Virus record (IMG/VR): IMGVR_UViG_3300017971_000019
Location: 64,001-92,489 of that record
From: a virus
Taxonomy: Duplodnaviria; Heunggongvirae; Uroviricota; Caudoviricetes
Length of the DNA stretch: 28,489 bases
Strand: one strand, 5' to 3'
Shown in pieces: positions 2,154-28,489 of the stretch. The notes under the pieces were generated by a model. The model was not told the origin of the DNA. It was given only the letters and a program-made list of their open reading frames with translations, and searched no databases. Every line of letters starts with the position of its first letter. Positions within the stretch are counted from its first letter, which is position 1. The position numbers and the translations under genes are program-made.

Positions 2154-2534
2154 ATGCCTCAGCGTGAAGCGAGGACGATCTACGACCTGGTGGACCGCCC
2201 AGAGGTGCGGACGCCAGACGGCCCCGCCACGCTCAATTCCATTGGGATCGGGACGGATCGTGGTGAGGTTCTCATCCCACAGGTCCGACGCGGCCTAGAC
2301 AGGCTGATGACCCCAGACGAGGCTTTCCAGCACTACCTGGCCACGGGGGAACACCTCGGCATCTTCGATACGCCGGATGAGTCCACCGCCGAAGGGGCGA
2401 GGCTCTCCCGTGAGCAGGCTGGGATTGGAAGGGCTAAGGCTCAGATGGCCGCTGCCCACGTTCGGATGGGGCCCATGGCTGGTCTACTGATGAGCCTGTT
2501 TGGAGCGCCGGGAGGGATTCGAACCCCCGAATAG
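2154..2534 (+). CDS. Hypothetical protein with a motif typical of phage internal-virion proteins
   Basis: RPEV.TPDG....SIGIGTD.GEVLIP.V....EAF.HY..TGEHLGIF.TP.E resembles a recurring phage domain (recalled, not searched). The last 34 nt overlap tRNA-Cys on the opposite strand. Confidence 0.65.
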   Translation: MPQREARTIYDLVDRPEVRTPDGPATLNSIGIGTDRGEVLIPQVRRGLDRLMTPDEAFQHYLATGEHLGIFDTPDESTAEGARLSREQAGIGRAKAQMAAAHVRMGPMAGLLMSLFGAPGGIRTPE

Positions 2535-2575
2535 TAGGGTTGCAGCCTACCGCGTTTCCGCTTCGCCACCGACGC
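2501..2575 (-). tRNA. tRNA-Cys(GCA)
   Basis: Cloverleaf; anticodon arm GTAGG-CTGCAAC-CCTAC; encoded CCA. Confidence 0.95.
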
Positions 2576-2650
2576 TTCTTGTTAAGGCTCTGTTTTACTT
2601 ACCTAACAACCTGGTTCGTTTAGTAAAGGTTCAGGCCTGAGCCTTTAATA

Positions 2651-2737
2651 TGGCGGAGGGCACGGGACTCGAACCCGCAAGGCCCGAAGGCCACACCCGG
2701 ATTCCAACCGGGCCGCTTTCCAATTCGCCTACCCTCC
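2651..2737 (-). tRNA. tRNA-Ser(GGA)
   Basis: CCCGG-TTGGAAT-CCGGG; long variable arm; G73; CCA. Confidence 0.95.
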
Positions 2738-2739
2738 GT

Positions 2740-2827
2740 TGGCGGAAGATGGAGGATTCGAACCCCTACGCACTTCTGCGTACCCCGGCTTTCAAGGCCG
2801 GTTGCGAACCGATTCGCGGCATCTTCC
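2740..2827 (-). tRNA. tRNA-Ser(TGA)
   Basis: CCGGC-CTTGAAA-GCCGG; long variable arm; CCA. Confidence 0.95.
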
Positions 2828-3305
2828 CCTTGTGACGTACGACGTGGTCCGCAGCGTGGGTTGCAGCCCATGCGTCGGGCTTCCACAGCGCCTTGAACCC
2901 CTGCCCTACGACCATGCCTACAAGCTCCTGGAGGTACTTGCTGGACATGTGCTTCTCGGACGCGTTCGCGTCGATGTGGACTGTGAGTTCCGGCTGCTCG
3001 GGAAGCTTCATGGCTAGCTCCACGGACATCCAGACTTCCTTCGTGAGCCTCTCCCTGAGAGAGGTGATGCGAGGGTAGACCTCGCGGTAGTACGCAACCC
3101 TCCCACCCTTCGGAGGGTTGAGGACCACGACCACGGTCACGAACTGGGTGTAGCGTCCGGTCTGGAGGGAGTCCGTGCCCACATGAACGACCTGGCCACG
3201 TCGCGTGGACTCCTTCACCCACTGGACGATGTCTTCGATCTTCTCCCCGGCTTCGAGCTTCTCCCCGCCGAGCGTCTTCCATTTCGACTTGTAGAGTGGC
3301 TTCAT
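2766..3305 (-). CDS. YkuK/DUF458 ribonuclease H-like protein
   Basis: Motifs VHVGTDS, FVTVVVV..GGR, SLRERLTKEVWMSVELA, TVHIDAN, KPDAWAATHAADHVVR match the YkuK family pattern. SD GAGGA upstream. Stop codon lies inside tRNA-Ser(TGA). Confidence 0.85.
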   Translation of the reverse strand: MKPLYKSKWKTLGGEKLEAGEKIEDIVQWVKESTRRGQVVHVGTDSLQTGRYTQFVTVVVVLNPPKGGRVAYYREVYPRITSLRERLTKEVWMSVELAMKLPEQPELTVHIDANASEKHMSSKYLQELVGMVVGQGFKALWKPDAWAATHAADHVVRHKGKMPRIGSQPALKAGVRRSA

Positions 3306-3345
3306 AGGTTGATCTTCCTCTTCGGTCTCTCGACTGCCTTGAAGG

Positions 3346-3420
3346 TGGTCCTCCCGATAAGCTTCGAACTTATACCCTGCCCCTTATAAGGAGGCTGCTC
3401 TTCCCTTGAGCTACGGGAGG
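3346..3420 (-). tRNA. tRNA-Ile(TAT)
   Basis: Acceptor CCTCCCG/CGGGAGG, A73, CCA; anticodon arm GCCTC-CTTATAA-GGGGC; T-arm ATAAG-TTCGAAG-CTTAT. Confidence 0.88.
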
Positions 3421-3426
3421 CCAGGT

Positions 3427-3511
3427 TGGCGGAAGGTGGAGGAATCGAACCCCTGCGCGGTGCGCACCCTGGTATTCGACACCAGTTGCCGACCATTCAG
3501 CGGCACCTTCC
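3427..3511 (-). tRNA. tRNA-Ser(CGA)
   Basis: CTGGT-GTCGAAT-ACCAG; long variable arm; CCA. Confidence 0.92.
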
Positions 3512-3596
3512 TGGCGGAAGAGGGGAGAGTCGAACTCCCTCGGGCTATACCCTTACCCGGTTAGCAGCCGGGCTCCTGACCGTTCGGATCTCTTCC
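3512..3596 (-). tRNA. tRNA-Ser(GCT)
   Basis: CCCGG-CTGCTAA-CCGGG; long variable arm; CCA. Confidence 0.95.
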
Positions 3597-3597
3597 A

Positions 3598-3673
3598 TGG
3601 AACCCCCCGCCGGATTCGAGCCGACGCCTCGGAGTTAGAAGCTCCGTGTGCTTGTCCATTACACCAGGGGGGC
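3598..3673 (-). tRNA. tRNA-Arg(TCT)
   Basis: CGGAG-CTTCTAA-CTCCG; CCA; T-loop CTCGAAT (C54). Confidence 0.9.
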
Positions 3674-3710
3674 GATTTGCACCCTGTGAGGGCGCGTACT
3701 GCACTCGAAA

Positions 3711-3786
3711 TGGAACTCCCGTCGGGATTCGAACCCGAGGCCTTCTCCTTAGGAGGGAGATGCTCTTCCATCTGAGCTACGGGAGC
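3711..3786 (-). tRNA. tRNA-Arg(CCT)
   Basis: TCTCC-CTCCTAA-GGAGA; CCA. Confidence 0.95.
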
Positions 3787-3788
3787 GT

Positions 3789-3863
3789 TGGAACCCCCTA
3801 CCCGACTCGAACGGGTGCGCGTAGGTTCGTAGCCTACTGCTCTTCCATCTGAGCTAAGGGGGC
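3789..3863 (-). tRNA. tRNA-Arg(ACG)
   Basis: GTAGG-CTACGAA-CCTAC; CCA. Confidence 0.95.
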
Positions 3864-3868
3864 TCGGT

Positions 3869-3942
3869 TGGTAGGGACATGGGGACTCGAACCCCAATCG
3901 CCTGGTTGAAAGCCAGGTCGCTTGCCTTTAGCGTATGCCCCC
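3869..3942 (-). tRNA. tRNA-Glu(TTC)
   Basis: CCTGG-CTTTCAA-CCAGG; CCA. Confidence 0.92.
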
Positions 3943-3953
3943 GTCCAGCCCTA

Positions 3954-4016
3954 CCCCGGTTGCGACTGGTCACAGGAACTCATTAGGGAGTGACTCTTCA
4001 TGAGCCGGGGAGTCGC
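3954..4016 (-). ncRNA. Structured spacer with pseudoknot potential, immediately 3' of tRNA-Thr(TGT)
   Basis: Interleaved 6-bp complements GCGACT/AGTCGC and CCCCGG/CCGGGG, plus an internal CTCAT/ATGAG stem. Confidence 0.45.
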
Positions 4017-4087
4017 TGGAGCCCCACCAGGGTATCGAACCCTGCGAGCGCTGCTTACAAGGCAGTGCCGGTCCCTGACCGTGAGGC
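4017..4087 (-). tRNA. tRNA-Thr(TGT), short D-arm
   Basis: 71 nt; CTGC-CTTGTAA-GCAG; D-arm reduced to CGGTC-AGGG-ACCG; CCA. Confidence 0.85.
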
Positions 4088-4163
4088 TGGTGGCTTCGAG
4101 TGGATTCGAACCACTATCGCCGTGCTCTTCAGGCACGCGCTCTACCGTTGGAGCTACGAAGCC
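4088..4163 (-). tRNA. tRNA-Phe(GAA)
   Basis: CGTGC-CTGAAGA-GCACG; CCA. Confidence 0.95.
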
Positions 4164-4168
4164 AAGTC

Positions 4169-4240
4169 TGGAGCCAACGCGGAGAATCGAACTCCGTCCT
4201 ACTCCTTACGAAGGAGGTTGGACACCATGTCCTCGCTGGC
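4169..4240 (-). tRNA. tRNA-Thr(CGT), short D-arm
   Basis: 72 nt; CTCC-TTCGTAA-GGAG; D-arm GGAC-ATGGT-GTCC; CCA. Confidence 0.85.
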
Positions 4241-4241
4241 G

Positions 4242-4308
4242 TTGATGGCTCCCCTGTGCTCAGGGCCTCTCCCCTTGCCAGAGAGCACGCGCACCACGCA
4301 GCCATCAA
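4242..4308 (-). ncRNA. Structured spacer RNA (multi-stem)
   Basis: Perfect 9-bp terminal stem TTGATGGCT/AGCCATCAA enclosing GCG-TGGTG-CGC and GTGCTC/GAGCAC stems. Confidence 0.45.
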
Positions 4309-4311
4309 TTC

Positions 4312-4386
4312 TGGTCCCAGAGGTTGGGGTCGAACCAACAGCCTCTCGGTTATCAACCGAACGCTCTACCATTGAGCTACTCCGGG
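4312..4386 (-). tRNA. tRNA-Ile(GAT)
   Basis: TTCGG-TTGATAA-CCGAG; CCA. Confidence 0.95.
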
Positions 4387-4388
4387 GA

Positions 4389-4462
4389 TGGTGGGACGCC
4401 AGAGAATCGAACTCTGCCCAATGGGTTAAAGGCCCAACGCTCCGCCTTGGAGCTAACGTCCC
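4389..4462 (-). tRNA. tRNA-Lys(TTT) with C33
   Basis: TTGGG-CCTTTAA-CCCAT; rest of the cloverleaf canonical; CCA. Confidence 0.85.
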
Positions 4463-4537
4463 TGGCTCAGGAGCCCAGATTCGAACTGGGACGATCTGAT
4501 TAACAGTCAGACATGCTCCCGTTGACATCACTCCTGA
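4463..4537 (-). tRNA. tRNA-Asn(GTT)
   Basis: TCTGA-CTGTTAA-TCAGA; U1-A72, G73; CCA. Confidence 0.95.
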
Positions 4538-4794
4538 ACATAGTTCCCGTGCTCGTCTCGCGCCTGGGAGAGCGCGTGGCTCCGAGAGTGCTCCGCACGG
4601 GAGGACAACTCTAGGTTCGCCGGATCGTTGTCGCGGCGATCACCGTTCTTGTGGTGGATCGTTTCATCGCTGGCCGGGAGCACGCCGTGCTCCTTCCAGT
4701 ACACCAGCGTGTGCTCGTAGCAGTAGCGGCCACGGTACTTCTTGCCGGGGAAGTCCTCCGGCGCTACGACGAGTTCGTATGGGCCGTTCTTCAT
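4528..4794 (-). CDS. Free-standing HNH endonuclease (HNH_3-like)
   Basis: YEHTLVYWKEHG...IHHKNGDRRDNDPANLEL....EHSRSH. SD AGGAG 5 nt before ATG 4794. Stop inside tRNA-Asn. Confidence 0.9.
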   Translation of the reverse strand: MKNGPYELVVAPEDFPGKKYRGRYCYEHTLVYWKEHGVLPASDETIHHKNGDRRDNDPANLELSSRAEHSRSHALSQARDEHGNYVQE

Positions 4795-4807
4795 CACCAC
4801 TCCTGAA
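4529..4807. repeat. 10-bp direct repeat CACTCCTGAA flanking the HNH gene
   Basis: Identical copies at 4529-4538 and 4798-4807 (12/13 match when extended to CAYCACTCCTGAA). Confidence 0.85.
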
Positions 4808-4881
4808 TGGCTGCCCCCCGCAGATTCGAACTGCGATTGTCCGGGTCAGAGCCGGGTGTCCTACCATTGAACGAAGGGGCA
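4808..4881 (-). tRNA. tRNA-Gln(CTG)
   Basis: CCGG-CTCTGAC-CCGG; U1-A72, G73; CCA. Confidence 0.95.
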
Positions 4882-4882
4882 T

Positions 4883-4956
4883 TGGTCGGGAAGCGGGGAG
4901 TCGAACCCCGGCTGCATGGTCCCAAACCACGCGTGCTGCCGTAACACTTCTTCCCG
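4883..4956 (-). tRNA. tRNA-Pro(TGG)
   Basis: CGTGG-TTTGGGA-CCATG; C1-G72; CCA. Confidence 0.95.
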
Positions 4957-4957
4957 T

Positions 4958-5031
4958 TGGGGTGTCCGAGCGGAGTTGAACCGCCATCACCAGGGCCACA
5001 ACCTGGCGCTCTTCCATTGAGCTACGGACAC
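4958..5031 (-). tRNA. tRNA-His(GTG), no encoded G-1
   Basis: CCAGG-TTGTGGC-CCTGG; C73; the base at -1 is T. Confidence 0.92.
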
Positions 5032-5177
5032 AACGAAACCGACGACGACACCAGACACCAGAGCCTCCGTGTGAACTGGTCTGTCGCTCCCGAGCTACCC
5101 TTGGAGCGGGATATTGGCTCTCTTATCACCCACCCACGATGCGTCTCGGATTCACTCGTCGTCAGTCGGCTTCGTTG
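5032..5177 (-). ncRNA. ~146-nt structured ncRNA of unknown class
   Basis: ~19-bp terminal helix CAACGAAGCCGAC(T)GACGAC / GTCGTCGTCGGTTTCGTTG, whose G-U pair favours the minus strand. Inner stems AGAGCC/GGCTCT and CGCTCC/GGAGCG. Confidence 0.6.
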
Positions 5178-5188
5178 TAGCCGTAGGT

Positions 5189-5264
5189 TGGTACTCCCCC
5201 AGGGACTTGAACCCTGACAGTGCTGGGTGTAAACCAGGTGTTCTGCCACTCGAACTCGGGGAGC
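5189..5264 (-). tRNA. tRNA-Val(TAC)
   Basis: CTGG-TTTACAC-CCAG; CCA. Confidence 0.93.
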
Positions 5265-5265
5265 A

Positions 5266-5340
5266 TGGTCGCACTGGAAGGATTCGAACCTTCAGGGCAG
5301 CCTCGTTATGAGCGAGCGCCAGTCACCAATCAGCAGTGCG
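5266..5340 (-). tRNA. tRNA-CAT (elongator Met or Ile2), poorly paired D-arm
   Basis: CTCG-CTCATAA-CGAG; acceptor CGCACTG/CAGTGCG fully paired; CCA. Met versus Ile2 cannot be resolved by eye. Confidence 0.75.
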
Positions 5341-5341
5341 A

Positions 5342-5417
5342 TGGTAGCGGGGGGAGGAATCGAACCTCCGGGGGTCATGGGTATGAACCACGCTTGGCTA
5401 CCAACAGCCTCCCCGCA
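5342..5417 (-). tRNA. tRNA-CAT, initiator (fMet)-like
   Basis: Acceptor TGCGGGG/CCCCGCT with a U1xU72 mismatch, otherwise fMet-like; CGTGG-TTCATAC-CCATG; CCA. Confidence 0.75.
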
Positions 5418-5511
5418 TCAGGCCCCGAAGTTCTGCCATACACCGTGCCGGTCTGGGCCTCGATGCGTAGGCTAGAGAGTGCTCGGGGTAGGCACCCTAC
5501 TGCGCAGAGCC

Positions 5512-5588
5512 TGGTACCGCTGCCGGGGCTTGAACCCGGACTCTCCGCCTTGAGAGGGCGGCGTGTTGGCCAGTTACACTACAGCGGC
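5512..5588 (-). tRNA. tRNA-Glu(CTC)
   Basis: CCGCC-CTCTCAA-GGCGG; CCA. Confidence 0.95.
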
Positions 5589-5591
5589 ACT

Positions 5592-5667
5592 TGGTGGACC
5601 CGGCGAGATTCGAACTCGCATCGTGCAGCTTGCAAGGCTGACATGTTCCCGTTAGCACCACGGGCCC
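5592..5667 (-). tRNA. tRNA-Ala(TGC)
   Basis: CAGC-CTTGCAA-GCTG; G3-U70 present; CCA. Confidence 0.95.
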
Positions 5668-5674
5668 ACGATTC

Positions 5675-5753
5675 TGGCGGGAGTGACGGGAATCGAACCC
5701 GCCTGGTATTCCGCGCTGACAACGCGGTGGCCACCCATGCAGCCCCCACTCCC
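5675..5753 (-). tRNA. tRNA-Asp(GTC)
   Basis: CCGCG-TTGTCAG-CGCGG; G73; slightly long variable region; CCA. Confidence 0.93.
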
Positions 5754-5755
5754 GC

Positions 5756-5832
5756 TGGTCCCTCCCCTGGGATTCGAACCCAGACTGTCCGGGGTTTGAA
5801 GCCGGTGCCTCTGCCAGTTGGACTAGAGAGGG
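5756..5832 (-). tRNA. tRNA-Leu(CAA), short variable arm
   Basis: CCGGC-TTCAAAC-CCCGG (C31xC39 mismatch); variable region ACAGT; A73; CCA. Confidence 0.8.
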
Positions 5833-5833
5833 T

Positions 5834-5911
5834 TGGTGCGAGCGGGGAGAGTCGAACTCCCAAGCGACTGGTTCTAAGCCAGCCAGGTATGCCAGTTCCC
5901 TTCACGCTCGC
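5834..5911 (-). tRNA. tRNA-Leu(TAG), short variable arm
   Basis: GCTGG-CTTAGAA-CCAGT; variable region CGCTT; A73; CCA. Confidence 0.88.
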
Positions 5912-5912
5912 A

Positions 5913-5989
5913 TGGTCCCACCGAGAGGATTCGAACCTCCACTGTCAGGAATCTCAGTCCTGTTCCTCTGCCAGTTGGGATACGGTGGG
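5913..5989 (-). tRNA. tRNA-Leu(GAG), short variable arm
   Basis: CAGGA-CTGAGAT-TCCTG; variable region ACAGT; A73; CCA. Confidence 0.88.
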
Positions 5990-6178
5990 TTTGTGAGACG
6001 GTGCGCACTTGAAGCAGATGCGTACCCTCTCGCCGTTACGTCTTGTCCTGTCGGAGCACCCGTTGCAGACGGGCCTTCCACAGTACGTGCAGCGTACCCT
6101 GGTCTTCCTCTTGAAGAAGTAGTCGCCAGGATTCGCTATACAGAGTGCGCTCTTGATCGCGCACGGTTCCGCCTTCAT
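5954..6178 (-). CDS. Small Cys-rich zinc-finger-like protein
   Basis: CTYC, CNGC and CFKC pairs plus two N-terminal Cys. Fills the 190-nt gap between tRNAs. Stop inside tRNA-Leu(GAG). Confidence 0.65.
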   Translation of the reverse strand: MKAEPCAIKSALCIANPGDYFFKRKTRVRCTYCGRPVCNGCSDRTRRNGERVRICFKCAPSHKPTVSQLAEEQD

Positions 6179-6180
6179 GT

Positions 6181-6256
6181 TGGTCCCCCCGGAAGGATTC
6201 GAACCTTCACCTCAACGGTTAAGAGCCGCGTATGCCATCCGTAACACCTCGGAGGG
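6181..6256 (-). tRNA. tRNA-Lys(CTT)
   Basis: GCGG-CTCTTAA-CCGT; CCA. Confidence 0.92.
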
Positions 6257-6257
6257 A

Positions 6258-6332
6258 TGGAGCCCCTGCCGGGAATCGAACCCAGACTGACTGCTTACCA
6301 AGCAGTTGTGCTTCCGTTATCACTACAAGGGC
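6258..6332 (-). tRNA. tRNA-Thr(GGT)
   Basis: ACTGC-TTGGTAA-GCAGT; CCA. Confidence 0.95.
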
Positions 6333-6334
6333 AT

Positions 6335-6423
6335 TGGTGGAGCAGGAGGGATTCGAACTCTCAAGTGTCCTTGGGACTCCGGGGTTACAGCCCGGTGCCG
6401 GCACCAGTTCCGGCGTCTGCTCC
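6335..6423 (-). tRNA. tRNA-Tyr(GTA)
   Basis: CCGGG-CTGTAAC-CCCGG; long variable arm; CCA. Confidence 0.95.
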
Positions 6424-6424
6424 A

Positions 6425-6499
6425 TGGAGCGGTCGGCGGGACTCGAACCCGCACCACAAGGCTTGGAAGGCCCGCTGCTGCCAGTTACACCACGACCGC
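6425..6499 (-). tRNA. tRNA-Gly(TCC)
   Basis: GGGC-CTTCCAA-GCCT; U73; CCA. Confidence 0.95.
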
Positions 6500-6502
6500 T
6501 CG

Positions 6503-6554
6503 CGGGGGCATTGCGCCCCCGTTACGTCTTTGAACGAACCAGGTTGTCAAAGAC
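6503..6554 (-). other. Two RNA hairpins in the Trp-Gly spacer
   Basis: CGGGGGC/GCCCCCG 7-bp stem (6503-6521) and GTCTTTGA/TCAAAGAC 8-bp stem (6526-6554). Confidence 0.7.
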
Positions 6555-6574
6555 CACGCGGCATCTATGGCCGA

Positions 6575-6648
6575 TGGCGGGCTCGCCAGGATTCGAACCT
6601 GGGTCTTCGGTTTTGGAGACCGAAATGCTTCCGCTACACCACGAACCC
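6575..6648 (-). tRNA. tRNA-Trp(CCA)
   Basis: TCGGT-CTCCAAA-ACCGA; G73; CCA. First tRNA of the array. Confidence 0.95.
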
Positions 6649-26396: not shown

Positions 26397-26606
26397 CTAG
26401 TCCTCCCACCACTCCCACTCGTCGTAGTCGTCAAGCTCAGGGATGTACTCTGGGTATCCCTCTCGGTCTACGCCTTCCGCCTGGAGCGCGGCTTCCACGT
26501 CTCTGCGCTCGTTCCTGGCCTTCCCACGAGGCGCACGGCGGTCCTTCATGGCCTTGCCCTTGCCCCGCAGGGCGAGAGCGTAGGCGACGGGGTTGCGTCC
26601 CTTCAT
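26397..26606 (-). CDS. Hypothetical protein, basic N-terminus and acidic C-terminus
   Basis: SD AGGAGG; MKGRNPVAYALALRGKG...DDYDEWEWWED. Confidence 0.7.
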   Translation of the reverse strand: MKGRNPVAYALALRGKGKAMKDRRAPRGKARNERRDVEAALQAEGVDREGYPEYIPELDDYDEWEWWED

Positions 26607-26976
26607 GGTTGCGCCTCCTGGAGCGGCGGACGGGAGCCGCTGATATAACCCCCGCCCGCCAAGTTCCTGCCAACTATCAGCTATCGGGGCGTGACGCGTT
26701 GAGGGTGCCCCAAGTCCCTCGCTCCGGTGCCTGTGTGTTTCAGTTGGCTTTACGTCACCAACGCATCGATTCACCTCCCGCGTTGAGTTGAATGCAGAGT
26801 AGTAGAGGCCACCCTCAAGTGAGAGCACGAAGACGGGCTGGCTAGCGTATCTGGTGCAAGTCAGACAGCGTTGCGGCCATGCCTTGGGGGGAGCTTGCAC
26901 GCATCCCCAGGTTGCTCCTCGTGCTCTCACTTGAAGGTGGGCGTGGATTCAGACGCCCCGTTACGTCGAGGGTTGC

Positions 26977-27154
26977 TGCCTCTGGCTGGATTTGAACCAG
27001 CGCGTGCGTTATCCCCTATCACTACACCTACTGATCAGGCAAGTGCGCCGTACGACCAGGCGATGATCAGTCGCCACTCCGCACGGCACGATCAAGGGTT
27101 GCATCTGACACGGGTAGTTAGCCCGCCGCTCTAGCCTAGCTGAGCTACAGAGGC
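26977..27154 (-). ncRNA. tRNA-like RNA with a 108-nt structured insertion in the variable arm
   Basis: Acceptor GCCTCTG/CAGAGGC + A73 (no CCA); D-arm GCTC/GAGC; arm GCGGG-CTAACTA-CCCGT; T-arm GCTGG-TTCAAAT-CCAGC; insert at 27002-27109. Confidence 0.85.
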
Positions 27155-27229
27155 ACAGATTAGACTGTGTCCCCCCTCCCCTTCAAGAGAGAGTTTGTGG
27201 TCCGGGTCAAGGTTCGCCTTCGGTTCCCC

Positions 27230-27279
27230 CTGTCTTGTATCCCGCCGGACCAACGGCATCCTGTTTGTATTCCGCCGAC
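27230..27279. repeat. Imperfect ~20-bp direct repeat in the intergenic region upstream of the tRNA-like RNA
   Basis: CTGTCTTGTATCCCGCCGGAC versus CTGT-TTGTATTCCGCC-GAC, about 31 bp apart. Confidence 0.45.
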
Positions 27280-27295
27280 AAGCGGCTCCTGGTTT

Positions 27296-28109: not shown

Positions 28110-28453
28110 CACTCCTCCTCTTCATCGTCCTCGTCCAGGTCCGGGTCGAAGTCGATCATAACCTTGGTGACCTGTCCCTGGTCGTTCTTCTTCACGTAGA
28201 CGGGGTAGCTCCCGTCGCCGTACAGAGTCTGGAAGTGGAAGTGACCACTGGGCATCTTGATGTAGCCCTTGCCACCGTGATGGTAGACCTGCTCCTTGTG
28301 GCCGTCGAGGTACTTGCAGTACTCGGGCCACTCCATGAAGCCGCTGGCGTCCGAGCCAACGACGTAGCACGGGTCACCGAGGGTCACGCTCCCGGCGTCC
28401 ACGTCCACGAGACCAACCTTCTCCCAGTCCGGCTCTCGGTCGTAGTAGCTCAT
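28106..28453 (-). CDS. DUF4241-like protein
   Basis: VDVDAG....GDPCYV and TLYGDGSYPVYV motifs; SD AGGAGG. Confidence 0.7.
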   Translation of the reverse strand: MSYYDREPDWEKVGLVDVDAGSVTLGDPCYVVGSDASGFMEWPEYCKYLDGHKEQVYHHGGKGYIKMPSGHFHFQTLYGDGSYPVYVKKNDQGQVTKVMIDFDPDLDEDDEEEEW

Positions 28454-28489
28454 GTCTGCCTCCTAGTGTCCGAAGCCCATGACGACCAC

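Follow-up and report, generated by a model that had tools for sequence, protein, structure and literature searches.

To our knowledge, non-coding mimicry of tRNA is known from a few families only, namely tmRNA, YrlA and the viral tRNA-like structures, and the longest natural tRNA variable arms that we know of are of about 20 nucleotides (nt). YrlA is a permuted mimic: its acceptor is a closed hairpin located between the T and D arms, the motif GNCGAAN0-1G lies near its 5′ end and its gene adjoins that of Ro60 (PMC4201824). Among larger phage RNAs, ROOL and GOLLD are found near tRNA islands and have conserved kissing loops (PMC12286853). Here we analyze a 178-nt tRNA-like RNA encoded on the minus strand of a virus genome, in a stretch of 28,489 nt (hereafter the window) that forms the final 28.5 kb of the complete 92,489-base pair (bp) IMG/VR record IMGVR_UViG_3300017971_000019. 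This RNA belongs to a real RNA family, itself included in a larger superfamily of tRNA-like phage RNAs that are borne on a cassette. Our preferred reading, to which as a whole we give a probability of about 0.55, is that of a non-decoding, tRNA-scaffolded phage RNA of a widespread undescribed family, whose two insert loops would kiss within one molecule and which would present itself to host machinery as a tRNA.

The Rfam tRNA model (RF00005) reported exactly positions 26977-27154, with 41.5 bits for a gathering score of 29 (E 1.9e-7 in a 551-nt stretch). Model positions 1-71 are all aligned, with the insert falling in the variable region. This agrees with a preliminary description made from the sequence of the window alone, which had recognized a cloverleaf body with a 7-bp acceptor stem, D and T arms and an A73 without CCA, a degenerate anticodon loop (CUAACUA) with a pyrimidine at position 37, and a 108-nt insert with a 9-bp helix and two hairpins capped by CUGAUCA. 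All these elements are present on the minus strand; the anticodon loop varies across lineages and the architecture of the insert covaries in relatives. The view that the RNA fits no described family also held, Rfam reporting for the window RNA no family besides tRNA at E up to 10. Thus the RNA itself had been read correctly, while its leader/trailer cassette and its membership of a large phage family had gone unnoticed. ARAGORN made no call for this RNA among its 31 array tRNAs. The minimum free energy (MFE) is -82.2 kcal/mol (z = -4.1) and none of 200 shuffles was equally stable. The two-hairpin fold, however, rests on comparison with relatives and not on the MFE: this comparison shows an L-shape-competent tRNA body carrying a Y-shaped two-hairpin domain in the variable region. 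The G-U pairs in hairpin 2 indicate that the structure is read on the minus strand. The loop motif TGATCA alone means little, since it is not rare in this genome (38 observed, about 12 expected).

Relatives of the RNA were searched for in several ways. BLASTN of the RNA and its surroundings against cultured phages gave no match, and the same search with the types B and C described below gave only a neighbouring tRNA-Lys. An exact 17-mer of hairpin 1 had 14 matches in viral contigs, all of them due to chance. A first pattern, two CTGATCA motifs followed by a T-loop, demands the loops; it gave two genuine relatives in viral contigs and at least 119 stretches in metagenomes. To be kept, a stretch of the latter kind had to form a hairpin around each loop, a T stem of 5 bp and an acceptor closure of 7 bp: among the metagenome matches listed, at least 29 were genuine and 94 were due to chance. 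Two other samples are independent of the loops. The first consists of loci fetched via homologues of an AAA ATPase, selected on the length of their contigs alone, in which the RNA was present in four of eight relatives (L140, L142, L143 and L145) and absent from L016/G001, L144, L170 and L171; the second, obtained with a pattern combining T-loop and trailer, consists of 16 viral loci. The viral and metagenome contigs yielded about 20 distinct lineages, whose stems are unrelated in sequence. They fall into type A, a full cloverleaf with a Y-shaped insert in the variable region (window, L036, L057, L081, L098, L103); type B, of 126-153 nt, with a Y-shaped domain replacing the anticodon arm (L022 group, L094, L099); and type C, which is like type B and located inside low-GC phage tRNA arrays (L020, L026/L075). 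The trailer pattern applied to about 185,000 bacterial species genomes gave only 8 matches, all by chance in coding sequence. The family was found in viral and metagenome contigs only, and is phage-restricted. No description of it was met in the open full-text literature, searched for the loop motif, phage tRNA-like kissing RNAs, decoys and tRNA scaffolds (subscription-only papers being outside this scope), and it is apparently undescribed and absent from Rfam as a family of its own.

The two hairpins were compared in a gapless core alignment of 13 sequences. We observed double-sided changes in all five stem pairs of hairpin 1 and in all seven of hairpin 2. For these 12 stem pairs 95.7% of the cells were paired, against 64% after shuffling (0/500 as high) and 26-43% when the partner was slid, while the helix that the two loops would form with each other (the kiss helix) was paired at 97% in the 13 cores. 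The preliminary description had named an insert turning out as unconserved junk in homologues as an outcome that would undo it; the hairpins are instead conserved and covarying.

The CUGAUCA loops, of 7 nt each, share a mutual complementarity of 6 nt. In relatives sampled independently of the loops (loop-unbiased), loop 1 and loop 2 are both UGAUCA in L145 and L142, UGAUCA and UGAUC in L193, UAGUCA and UGACUA in L143, UGACUA and UAGUCA in L154, UAGCUA twice in L262, and UCUAGG and CCUAGA in L152/L160. The changes in L143 and L154 alter different base pairs of the 6-bp duplex and are thus independent; in L262 all four inner pairs are swapped, in both loops. Shuffling of the loops gave p = 0.0005-0.012 for L145, L142, L143, L154 and L152, whereas the L193 and L262 loop pairs stand outside these five. 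Two further candidates, L149 and L158, were rejected as loop-complementary: the segments concerned form ordinary helices. Because of the compensatory loop variants, the conserved feature is the complementarity of loop 1 and loop 2 and neither the GAU triplet nor the palindrome. As far as sequence comparison can tell, these compensatory changes support a loop-loop kiss, the first of three functional options in the preliminary description.

The same variants bear on its second option, a multi-anticodon decoy: the CUGAUCA loops and the vestigial anticodon loop would mimic tRNA-Ile(GAU) arms and titrate an anticodon nuclease or another anticodon reader. Phages counter tRNA-cleaving defences with tRNAs of their own, and the loops do have 7 nt, a U at position 2 and the reading GAU. 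The canonical Ile loop CUGAUAA moreover stands in the anticodon arm of two lineages (L036, L143), with GAU remnants in others. However, the loop-unbiased pairs UAGUCA/UGACUA, UAGCUA/UAGCUA and UCUAGG/CCUAGA lose GAU and keep their mutual complementarity, and loops engaged in a 6-bp kiss would be unavailable as anticodon mimics. Position 37 is a pyrimidine, and the bodies have no special similarity to the phage's own tRNA-Ile. The likeness of hairpin 1 and the following UGGUC to the anticodon arm and variable loop of a tRNA-Ile, remarked on earlier, did not prove general among relatives. We consider the decoy very improbable.

Covariation of this kind fits an intra- and an intermolecular kiss alike. 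In 17 of the 21 RNAs listed, the loops are separated by 24-28 nt despite varying stem lengths, and this near-constant spacing favours a fixed intramolecular geometry, without proving one; in trans it would be unneeded. The alternative is that the hairpin-1 loop of one copy pairs with the hairpin-2 loop of others, or that palindromic loops pair like with like, giving dimers, rings or larger RNA-only particles in the manner of phi29 pRNA, ROOL and GOLLD. The loops are indeed self-complementary in most members, and the non-palindromic variants, by keeping loop 1/loop 2 complementarity, would be equally suited to head-to-tail assembly, although they exclude like-with-like pairing as the conserved contact. 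In most members hairpin 1 (outer helix, internal loop and inner stem) far exceeds hairpin 2 in length, and a simple side-by-side kiss within one molecule would not easily accommodate this difference. Oligomerization by kissing loops is known of phage RNAs encoded close to tRNA islands, and the conserved kissing loop of ROOL, first inferred to be tertiary, proved to be quaternary, i.e. intermolecular (PMC12286853). At 178-260 nt, the present RNA is far below the size of known cage-forming RNAs. Taken together, intermolecular assembly seems to us rather doubtful, if conceivable.

The tRNA body was compared in 10 type A orthologues, 45-69% identical. Acceptor and T stems were 100% paired, with double-sided changes in 6/7 and 3/5 pairs respectively, and the D stem was 92.5% paired, with such changes in 3/4 pairs; the T-loop region GGUUC.A..CC is invariant. 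The anticodon loop is not conserved: it is CUGAUAA in L036 and L143 (the canonical Ile loop), AUGAUCU in L098, CUAAUAC in L057, CUAACUA in the window, CUAACUG in L145 and UUAAGUG in L140, has 8 nt in L103, and in L142 consists of a triloop, GAU, borne by a 7-bp stem. Of the 165 positions compared between L036 and L047, seven differ; six of these are located in the anticodon loop or its 3′ stem, and the L047 loop is scrambled. A conserved 7-nt loop with U33 and a purine at position 37, as expected of a tRNA, was thus not found (U37 in the window), nor was a variable region of ordinary length (108 nt). CCA is encoded in 23/23 of the other window tRNAs examined (those listed by Rfam), while in this RNA GCA follows A73. 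Since the anticodon loop decays and no CCA is encoded, decoding, charging and intron readings are unlikely, and on the evidence of these comparisons the RNA is not under selection for decoding. An origin from the phage's own tRNA-Ile was considered and not retained, as the body has no special similarity to it and only the GAU remnants in the anticodon loop point that way; these remnants suggest descent from a tRNA-Ile.

Another alternative is an interrupted tRNA gene, with a removable intron or a mobile insertion, or else a decayed tRNA pseudogene filled with junk. The excisable insert was the third option of the preliminary description. Rfam does align both flanks to the full tRNA model, L036 and L143 minus their insert would be normal tRNA-Ile(GAU), and the RNA is patchily present among relatives. 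Nevertheless, the anticodon loop is degenerate in most lineages (note the L142 triloop and the scrambled L047 loop beside that of L036) while the insert is conserved and covarying, the reverse of the expectation for a working tRNA with an intron or for a pseudogene with junk. The RNA also lacks the encoded CCA of the 23 array tRNAs examined. The array already provides Ile-GAU and all 20 amino acids, and in most of the wider family described below the insert replaces the anticodon itself. As to group I introns, already set aside in the preliminary description, their core is of roughly 200 nt or more and would interrupt the anticodon loop, whereas the insert is of 108 nt and lies in the variable region; neither Intron_gpI nor any other intron model matched at E up to 10. 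A protein-spliced bulge-helix-bulge tRNA intron would be unlikely on indirect grounds, given a decaying anticodon next to a conserved insert. Overall, we give hardly any credence to an interrupted or decayed tRNA gene.

The RNA lies within a leader/trailer cassette, modelled by cofolding the leader with the trailer (Table 1). From 5′ to 3′ the modules are the P1 5′ strand (AGG), the P2 5′ strand, GG(G)A(C), hairpin A of 4-5 bp, the tRNA-like body, GC(A), the P2 3′ strand, (G/U)AACGR, hairpin B (GGCG-loop-CGCC), UA and the P1 3′ strand starting with CCU. All type A members conserve the leader (GAAGGGGAGGGGGGAC in the window) and the trailer. Pairing reaches 95-100% in hairpins A and B, where some covariation is seen; hairpin A is 100% paired in the 10 orthologues, with double-sided changes in 2/4 pairs (GUAG/CUAC, AUAG/CUAU, ACAG/CUGU). 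For P2, examined in 22 cassettes, the cognate leader-trailer pairing was better than the non-cognate one in 20000/20000 permutations. Rfam models of known self-cleaving ribozymes and riboswitches gave no match on the cassette, although models split by a 178-nt insertion could escape this search. Short strings at 26959-26967 and 27064-27070 and in the leaders of relatives (GUAAC-AGG, AAGGUAG, GAUCA) may resemble the 3′ end region of 16S rRNA; the Rfam small-subunit rRNA models did not match, and the likeness may be a coincidence.

Table 1. Features of the tRNA-like RNA (26977-27154) and of its cassette (26930-27187), in window coordinates and in 5′ to 3′ order of the RNA
Feature	Positions	Strand	Basis or remark
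P1 5′ strand CUUGAAGG, leader	27180-27187	minus	Cofold; AGG/CCU core conserved; prediction only
P2 5′ strand GAGGG, leader	27174-27178	minus	Pairs with trailer CCCUC
Hairpin A ACAG-UCUAAU-CUGU, abutting the tRNA 5′ end	27155-27168	minus	Covariation
Acceptor stem, 5′ strand	27148-27154	minus	Rfam alignment; 7-bp GCCUCUG/CAGAGGC, then U8 A9
D arm GCUC-AGCUAGGCUA-GAGC	27128-27145	minus	Rfam alignment
Vestigial anticodon arm GCGGG-CUAACUA-CCCGU, U at 37	27110-27126	minus	Rfam alignment
Variable-region insert, 108 nt (closing helix, hairpin 1, hairpin 2)	27002-27109	minus	Architecture shared by about 20 lineages
9-bp outer helix GUGCCGUGC/GUACGGCGC beneath hairpin 1	27081-27089 with 27045-27053	minus	
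Hairpin 1, inner stem-loop GGCGA-CUGAUCA-UCGCC	27059-27075 (loop 27064-27070)	minus	Covariation
Hairpin 2 ACUUGC-CUGAUCA-GUAGGU	27026-27044 (loop 27032-27038)	minus	Covariation
T arm GCUGG-UUCAAAU-CCAGC	26985-27001	minus	Rfam alignment
Acceptor stem, 3′ strand, and discriminator A73, then GCA, not CCA	26977-26984	minus	
P2 3′ strand CCCUC, trailer	26968-26972	minus	
Conserved junction GACGUAACG, family consensus (G/U)AACGR	26959-26967	minus	(Near-)invariant columns; part of the T-loop plus trailer pattern
Hairpin B GGGCGU-CUGAAUCC-ACGCCC, trailer	26939-26958	minus	Conserved
P1 3′ strand CCUUCAAG	26930-26937	minus	Cofold

The trailer occurs once in the genome of the window. In phage contigs, the motif of its hairpin, AACGRGGCG…CGCCYAC, is found downstream of no fewer than 70 different tRNA-like bodies with inserts, and the same trailer also follows ordinary tRNAs (L156). 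The trailer hairpin is found after type C members too, with a longer loop, and upstream of the RNA in type B, a permuted arrangement. With the T-loop plus trailer pattern relaxed, at least 119 viral loci with at least 70 unique bodies were obtained, mostly of 110-160 nt and with many different inserts, besides a few ordinary tRNAs. The insert of this wider family mostly takes the place of the anticodon loop itself, and on the trailer-anchored bodies Rfam reported tRNA only. One different conserved insert, GAGACAGGAACGCCCAAUUGAU, is common to three tRNA-like RNAs of trailer-anchored viral loci (L153, L157, L159) with the same leader/trailer cassette, and may represent another subclass of the superfamily. 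In L142, a second tRNA-like element (L142:4405-4629), with a 7-bp acceptor closure CCCCCGU/GCGGGGG, a T arm and a different insert of about 150 nt, sits 270 nt upstream of the kissing-type RNA; the same intergenic region contains a 21-nt repeat, GACGTACACATGAGCGCATGA, twice.

These flanks raise the question of an action in cis. The element could be a processing unit of an early polycistronic mRNA, its body recruiting RNase P and RNase Z and its helices perhaps RNase III, so that the flanking messages are uncoupled and nothing acts in trans. Such a unit would account for the position amid early genes of the same strand, for the lack of a predicted promoter or terminator belonging to the element, for the pairing of leader and trailer, for the same trailer after ordinary tRNAs, and for the conservation of RNase P/Z features (acceptor, T and D arms) only, the anticodon excepted. 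It leaves unexplained a domain of roughly 100 nt whose covarying hairpins and 6-bp loop complementarity are kept across about 20 lineages, as well as the at least 70 different structured inserts; also, there is one copy of the element per genome, and half of the relatives have none. We regard a mere cis unit as unlikely.

A more general proposal is that of a phage RNA display system: the tRNA body, in its leader/trailer platform, would carry interchangeable domains (at least 70 inserts), of which the kissing domain would be one recurrent cargo. Its products would be trans effectors directed against host tRNA-directed machinery or defence, the kissing type possibly forming head-to-tail rings. 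We put this forward tentatively, as less than an even chance.

According to our preferred reading, that of a non-decoding tRNA mimic with an intramolecular kiss, the RNA would be transcribed with the early genes from the minus strand. An intramolecular kiss of its two loops would hold the insert as a rigid module. Acting in trans, the RNA would present this module to host machinery that reads the tRNA body and not the anticodon, candidate targets being processing or modification enzymes and tRNA-targeting defence toxins, with a role as decoy or adaptor. It may be kept as the cassette form of about 260 nt and not be freed as a chargeable tRNA. The part played as a tRNA mimic is what we infer, and no more than that.

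Besides the ambiguity of the covariation and the ROOL precedent mentioned above, several observations weigh against this reading. Folded as a single sequence, the RNA adopts at its MFE one long rod that merges the anticodon arm with the insert and leaves hairpin 2 unformed. Many UGAUCA members came from the loop-demanding pattern and were thus ascertained by their loops, and L140, which is loop-unbiased, keeps only the 4-bp GAUC core in both loops (shuffle p = 0.15). In the cassette, the cognate versus non-cognate test was not significant for the variable outer part of P1 (p about 0.22). Furthermore, directly downstream of the cassette lies a 132-nt hairpin (26810-26941, minus strand) with a 24-bp perfect stem, not found in L142; the 5′ arm of this hairpin runs into the last part of hairpin B and into P1b (the P1 3′ strand), so that it competes with P1 and, once formed, would exclude it. 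No sigma-70-type promoter or intrinsic terminator was predicted near the RNA. No protein family co-occurred with the RNA, the maximum being 3/6 RNA-positive loci, and no Ro60 (TROVE), RtcB or RNA_ligase/Rnl ligase gene was found in the genome of the window. Finally, the RNA is absent from the closest complete relative (G001, with a 30-tRNA array and a SWIM homologue), where the trailer motif is found nowhere; the RNA is dispensable for this reason.

The surroundings of the RNA are as follows. In the right 10 kb of the window every gene is on the minus strand, as is the RNA, which is located between same-strand early genes. The tRNA array (window 2501-6648, minus strand, plus one tRNA just beyond the window) comprises the 31 tRNAs called by ARAGORN, for all 20 amino acids, Ile-GAU included. 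A SWIM zinc-finger gene stands just upstream of the RNA in the window, L098 and L103, the only three lineages in which it adjoins the RNA; in a word-indexed search, the 76-amino acid SWIM protein matched only itself. An AAA ATPase gene 3-4 kb downstream of the RNA is common to the window and L098. For a small flanking protein of 115 amino acids, a search for relatives found none. The 177-amino acid open reading frame at 26397-26930 (minus strand) has a GC content at third codon positions of just 0.66 and is conserved in L142 and L171 at residues ~108-154 only; it is probably over-long, with a true start near 26650, in which case about 650 nt around the cassette would be noncoding. At 27200-27290 (minus strand), between the leader and the SWIM gene, two tandem short GC hairpins are each followed by GGCGGRAUACAARACAGG, and these copies could be a regulatory or protein-binding repeat. 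Some relatives encode RNA-repair enzymes, namely an Rnl-type RNA ligase, a DNA/RNA ligase and RtcB (L142:16940-17593, L144:5172-6152 and the contig carrying P0057). The ends of the record carry a 123-bp terminal repeat (window 28367-28489 and the genome start), which may be no more than the overlapping ends left by the assembly of a circular or permuted genome; in G001, the region syntenic to it sits mid-contig.

What emerges is a widespread viral and metagenome family with strong covariation, a maintained loop-loop contact and a cassette common to dozens of insert-bearing tRNA-like RNAs. Should these RNAs act as effectors, the phage-host conflict over tRNAs would gain an RNA layer. The natural loop variants supply ready-made compensatory mutants, so the kiss, within or between molecules, is directly testable at the bench.

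Among known systems, class II tRNAs and the RF00005 model share with this RNA the 7-bp acceptor stem, the D and T arms, the canonical T-loop and an extra structure issuing from the variable region. They differ in that the variable region is here of 108 nt and branched, the anticodon loop is unconserved, CCA is lacking and leader and trailer are paired. Like tmRNA, the RNA has a tRNA-like acceptor/T-arm module that bears a large structured domain instead of decoding, and tmRNA also occurs in phage tRNA arrays: a low-GC array holding a kissing-type RNA ends with a permuted tmRNA called by ARAGORN (L075:12100-12394, tag GEYALAAAA*). The window RNA has C3-G70 and not G3-U70, no tag frame and no pseudoknot series, but a proper D arm and a vestigial anticodon arm within 178 nt, and neither ARAGORN nor Rfam found a tmRNA in the window; the preliminary description had likewise held that the RNA does not fit tmRNA. 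With YrlA (RF02553) the RNA has in common that it is a non-coding tRNA mimic, present in some phages, with T/D-arm features and a stem made from distal sequences. It differs by its tRNA order, by a leader without the GNCGAAN0-1G motif and by a genome without a TROVE gene, and RF02553 did not match the window RNA at E up to 10; here too the earlier exclusion stands. A sub-threshold YrlA match (39 bits for a gathering score of 69) was seen at L242:1001-1112, about 260 nt upstream of a trailer-bearing tRNA.

Similarly to phi29 pRNA, ROOL and GOLLD, the RNA is phage-encoded and structured, with covarying complementary loops, but it is tRNA-based and much smaller than ROOL and GOLLD, and its near-constant loop spacing favours an intramolecular kiss; Rfam gave no match to GOLLD, ROOL or phi29 pRNA in the window. 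The closing helix and two hairpins with kissing loops have the topology of a purine-riboswitch-like three-way junction. However, the junction is unconserved among orthologues, the hairpins are of unequal length and no riboswitch model matched. Antisense hairpins such as CopA/CopT and RNAI/RNAII kiss through YUNR U-turn loops borne by two different RNAs and regulate replication or translation. The 7-nt loops described here start with CUGA, which fits Y-U-N-R, and offer 6 nt for Watson-Crick pairing, with the difference that both loops are in one molecule.

By its design, the nearest analogue would be the engineered tRNA scaffold, reportedly introduced by Ponchon and Dardel in 2007 for recombinant RNA expression. 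In both, the acceptor, D and T arms are kept, and in most of the wider family, as in the scaffold, a structured RNA replaces the anticodon region. The scaffold is a laboratory design, whereas the subtype in the window is natural, carries its domain in the variable region and has a leader/trailer platform around the body. If the phage RNAs act as effectors, they would be the natural counterpart of this engineered scaffold.

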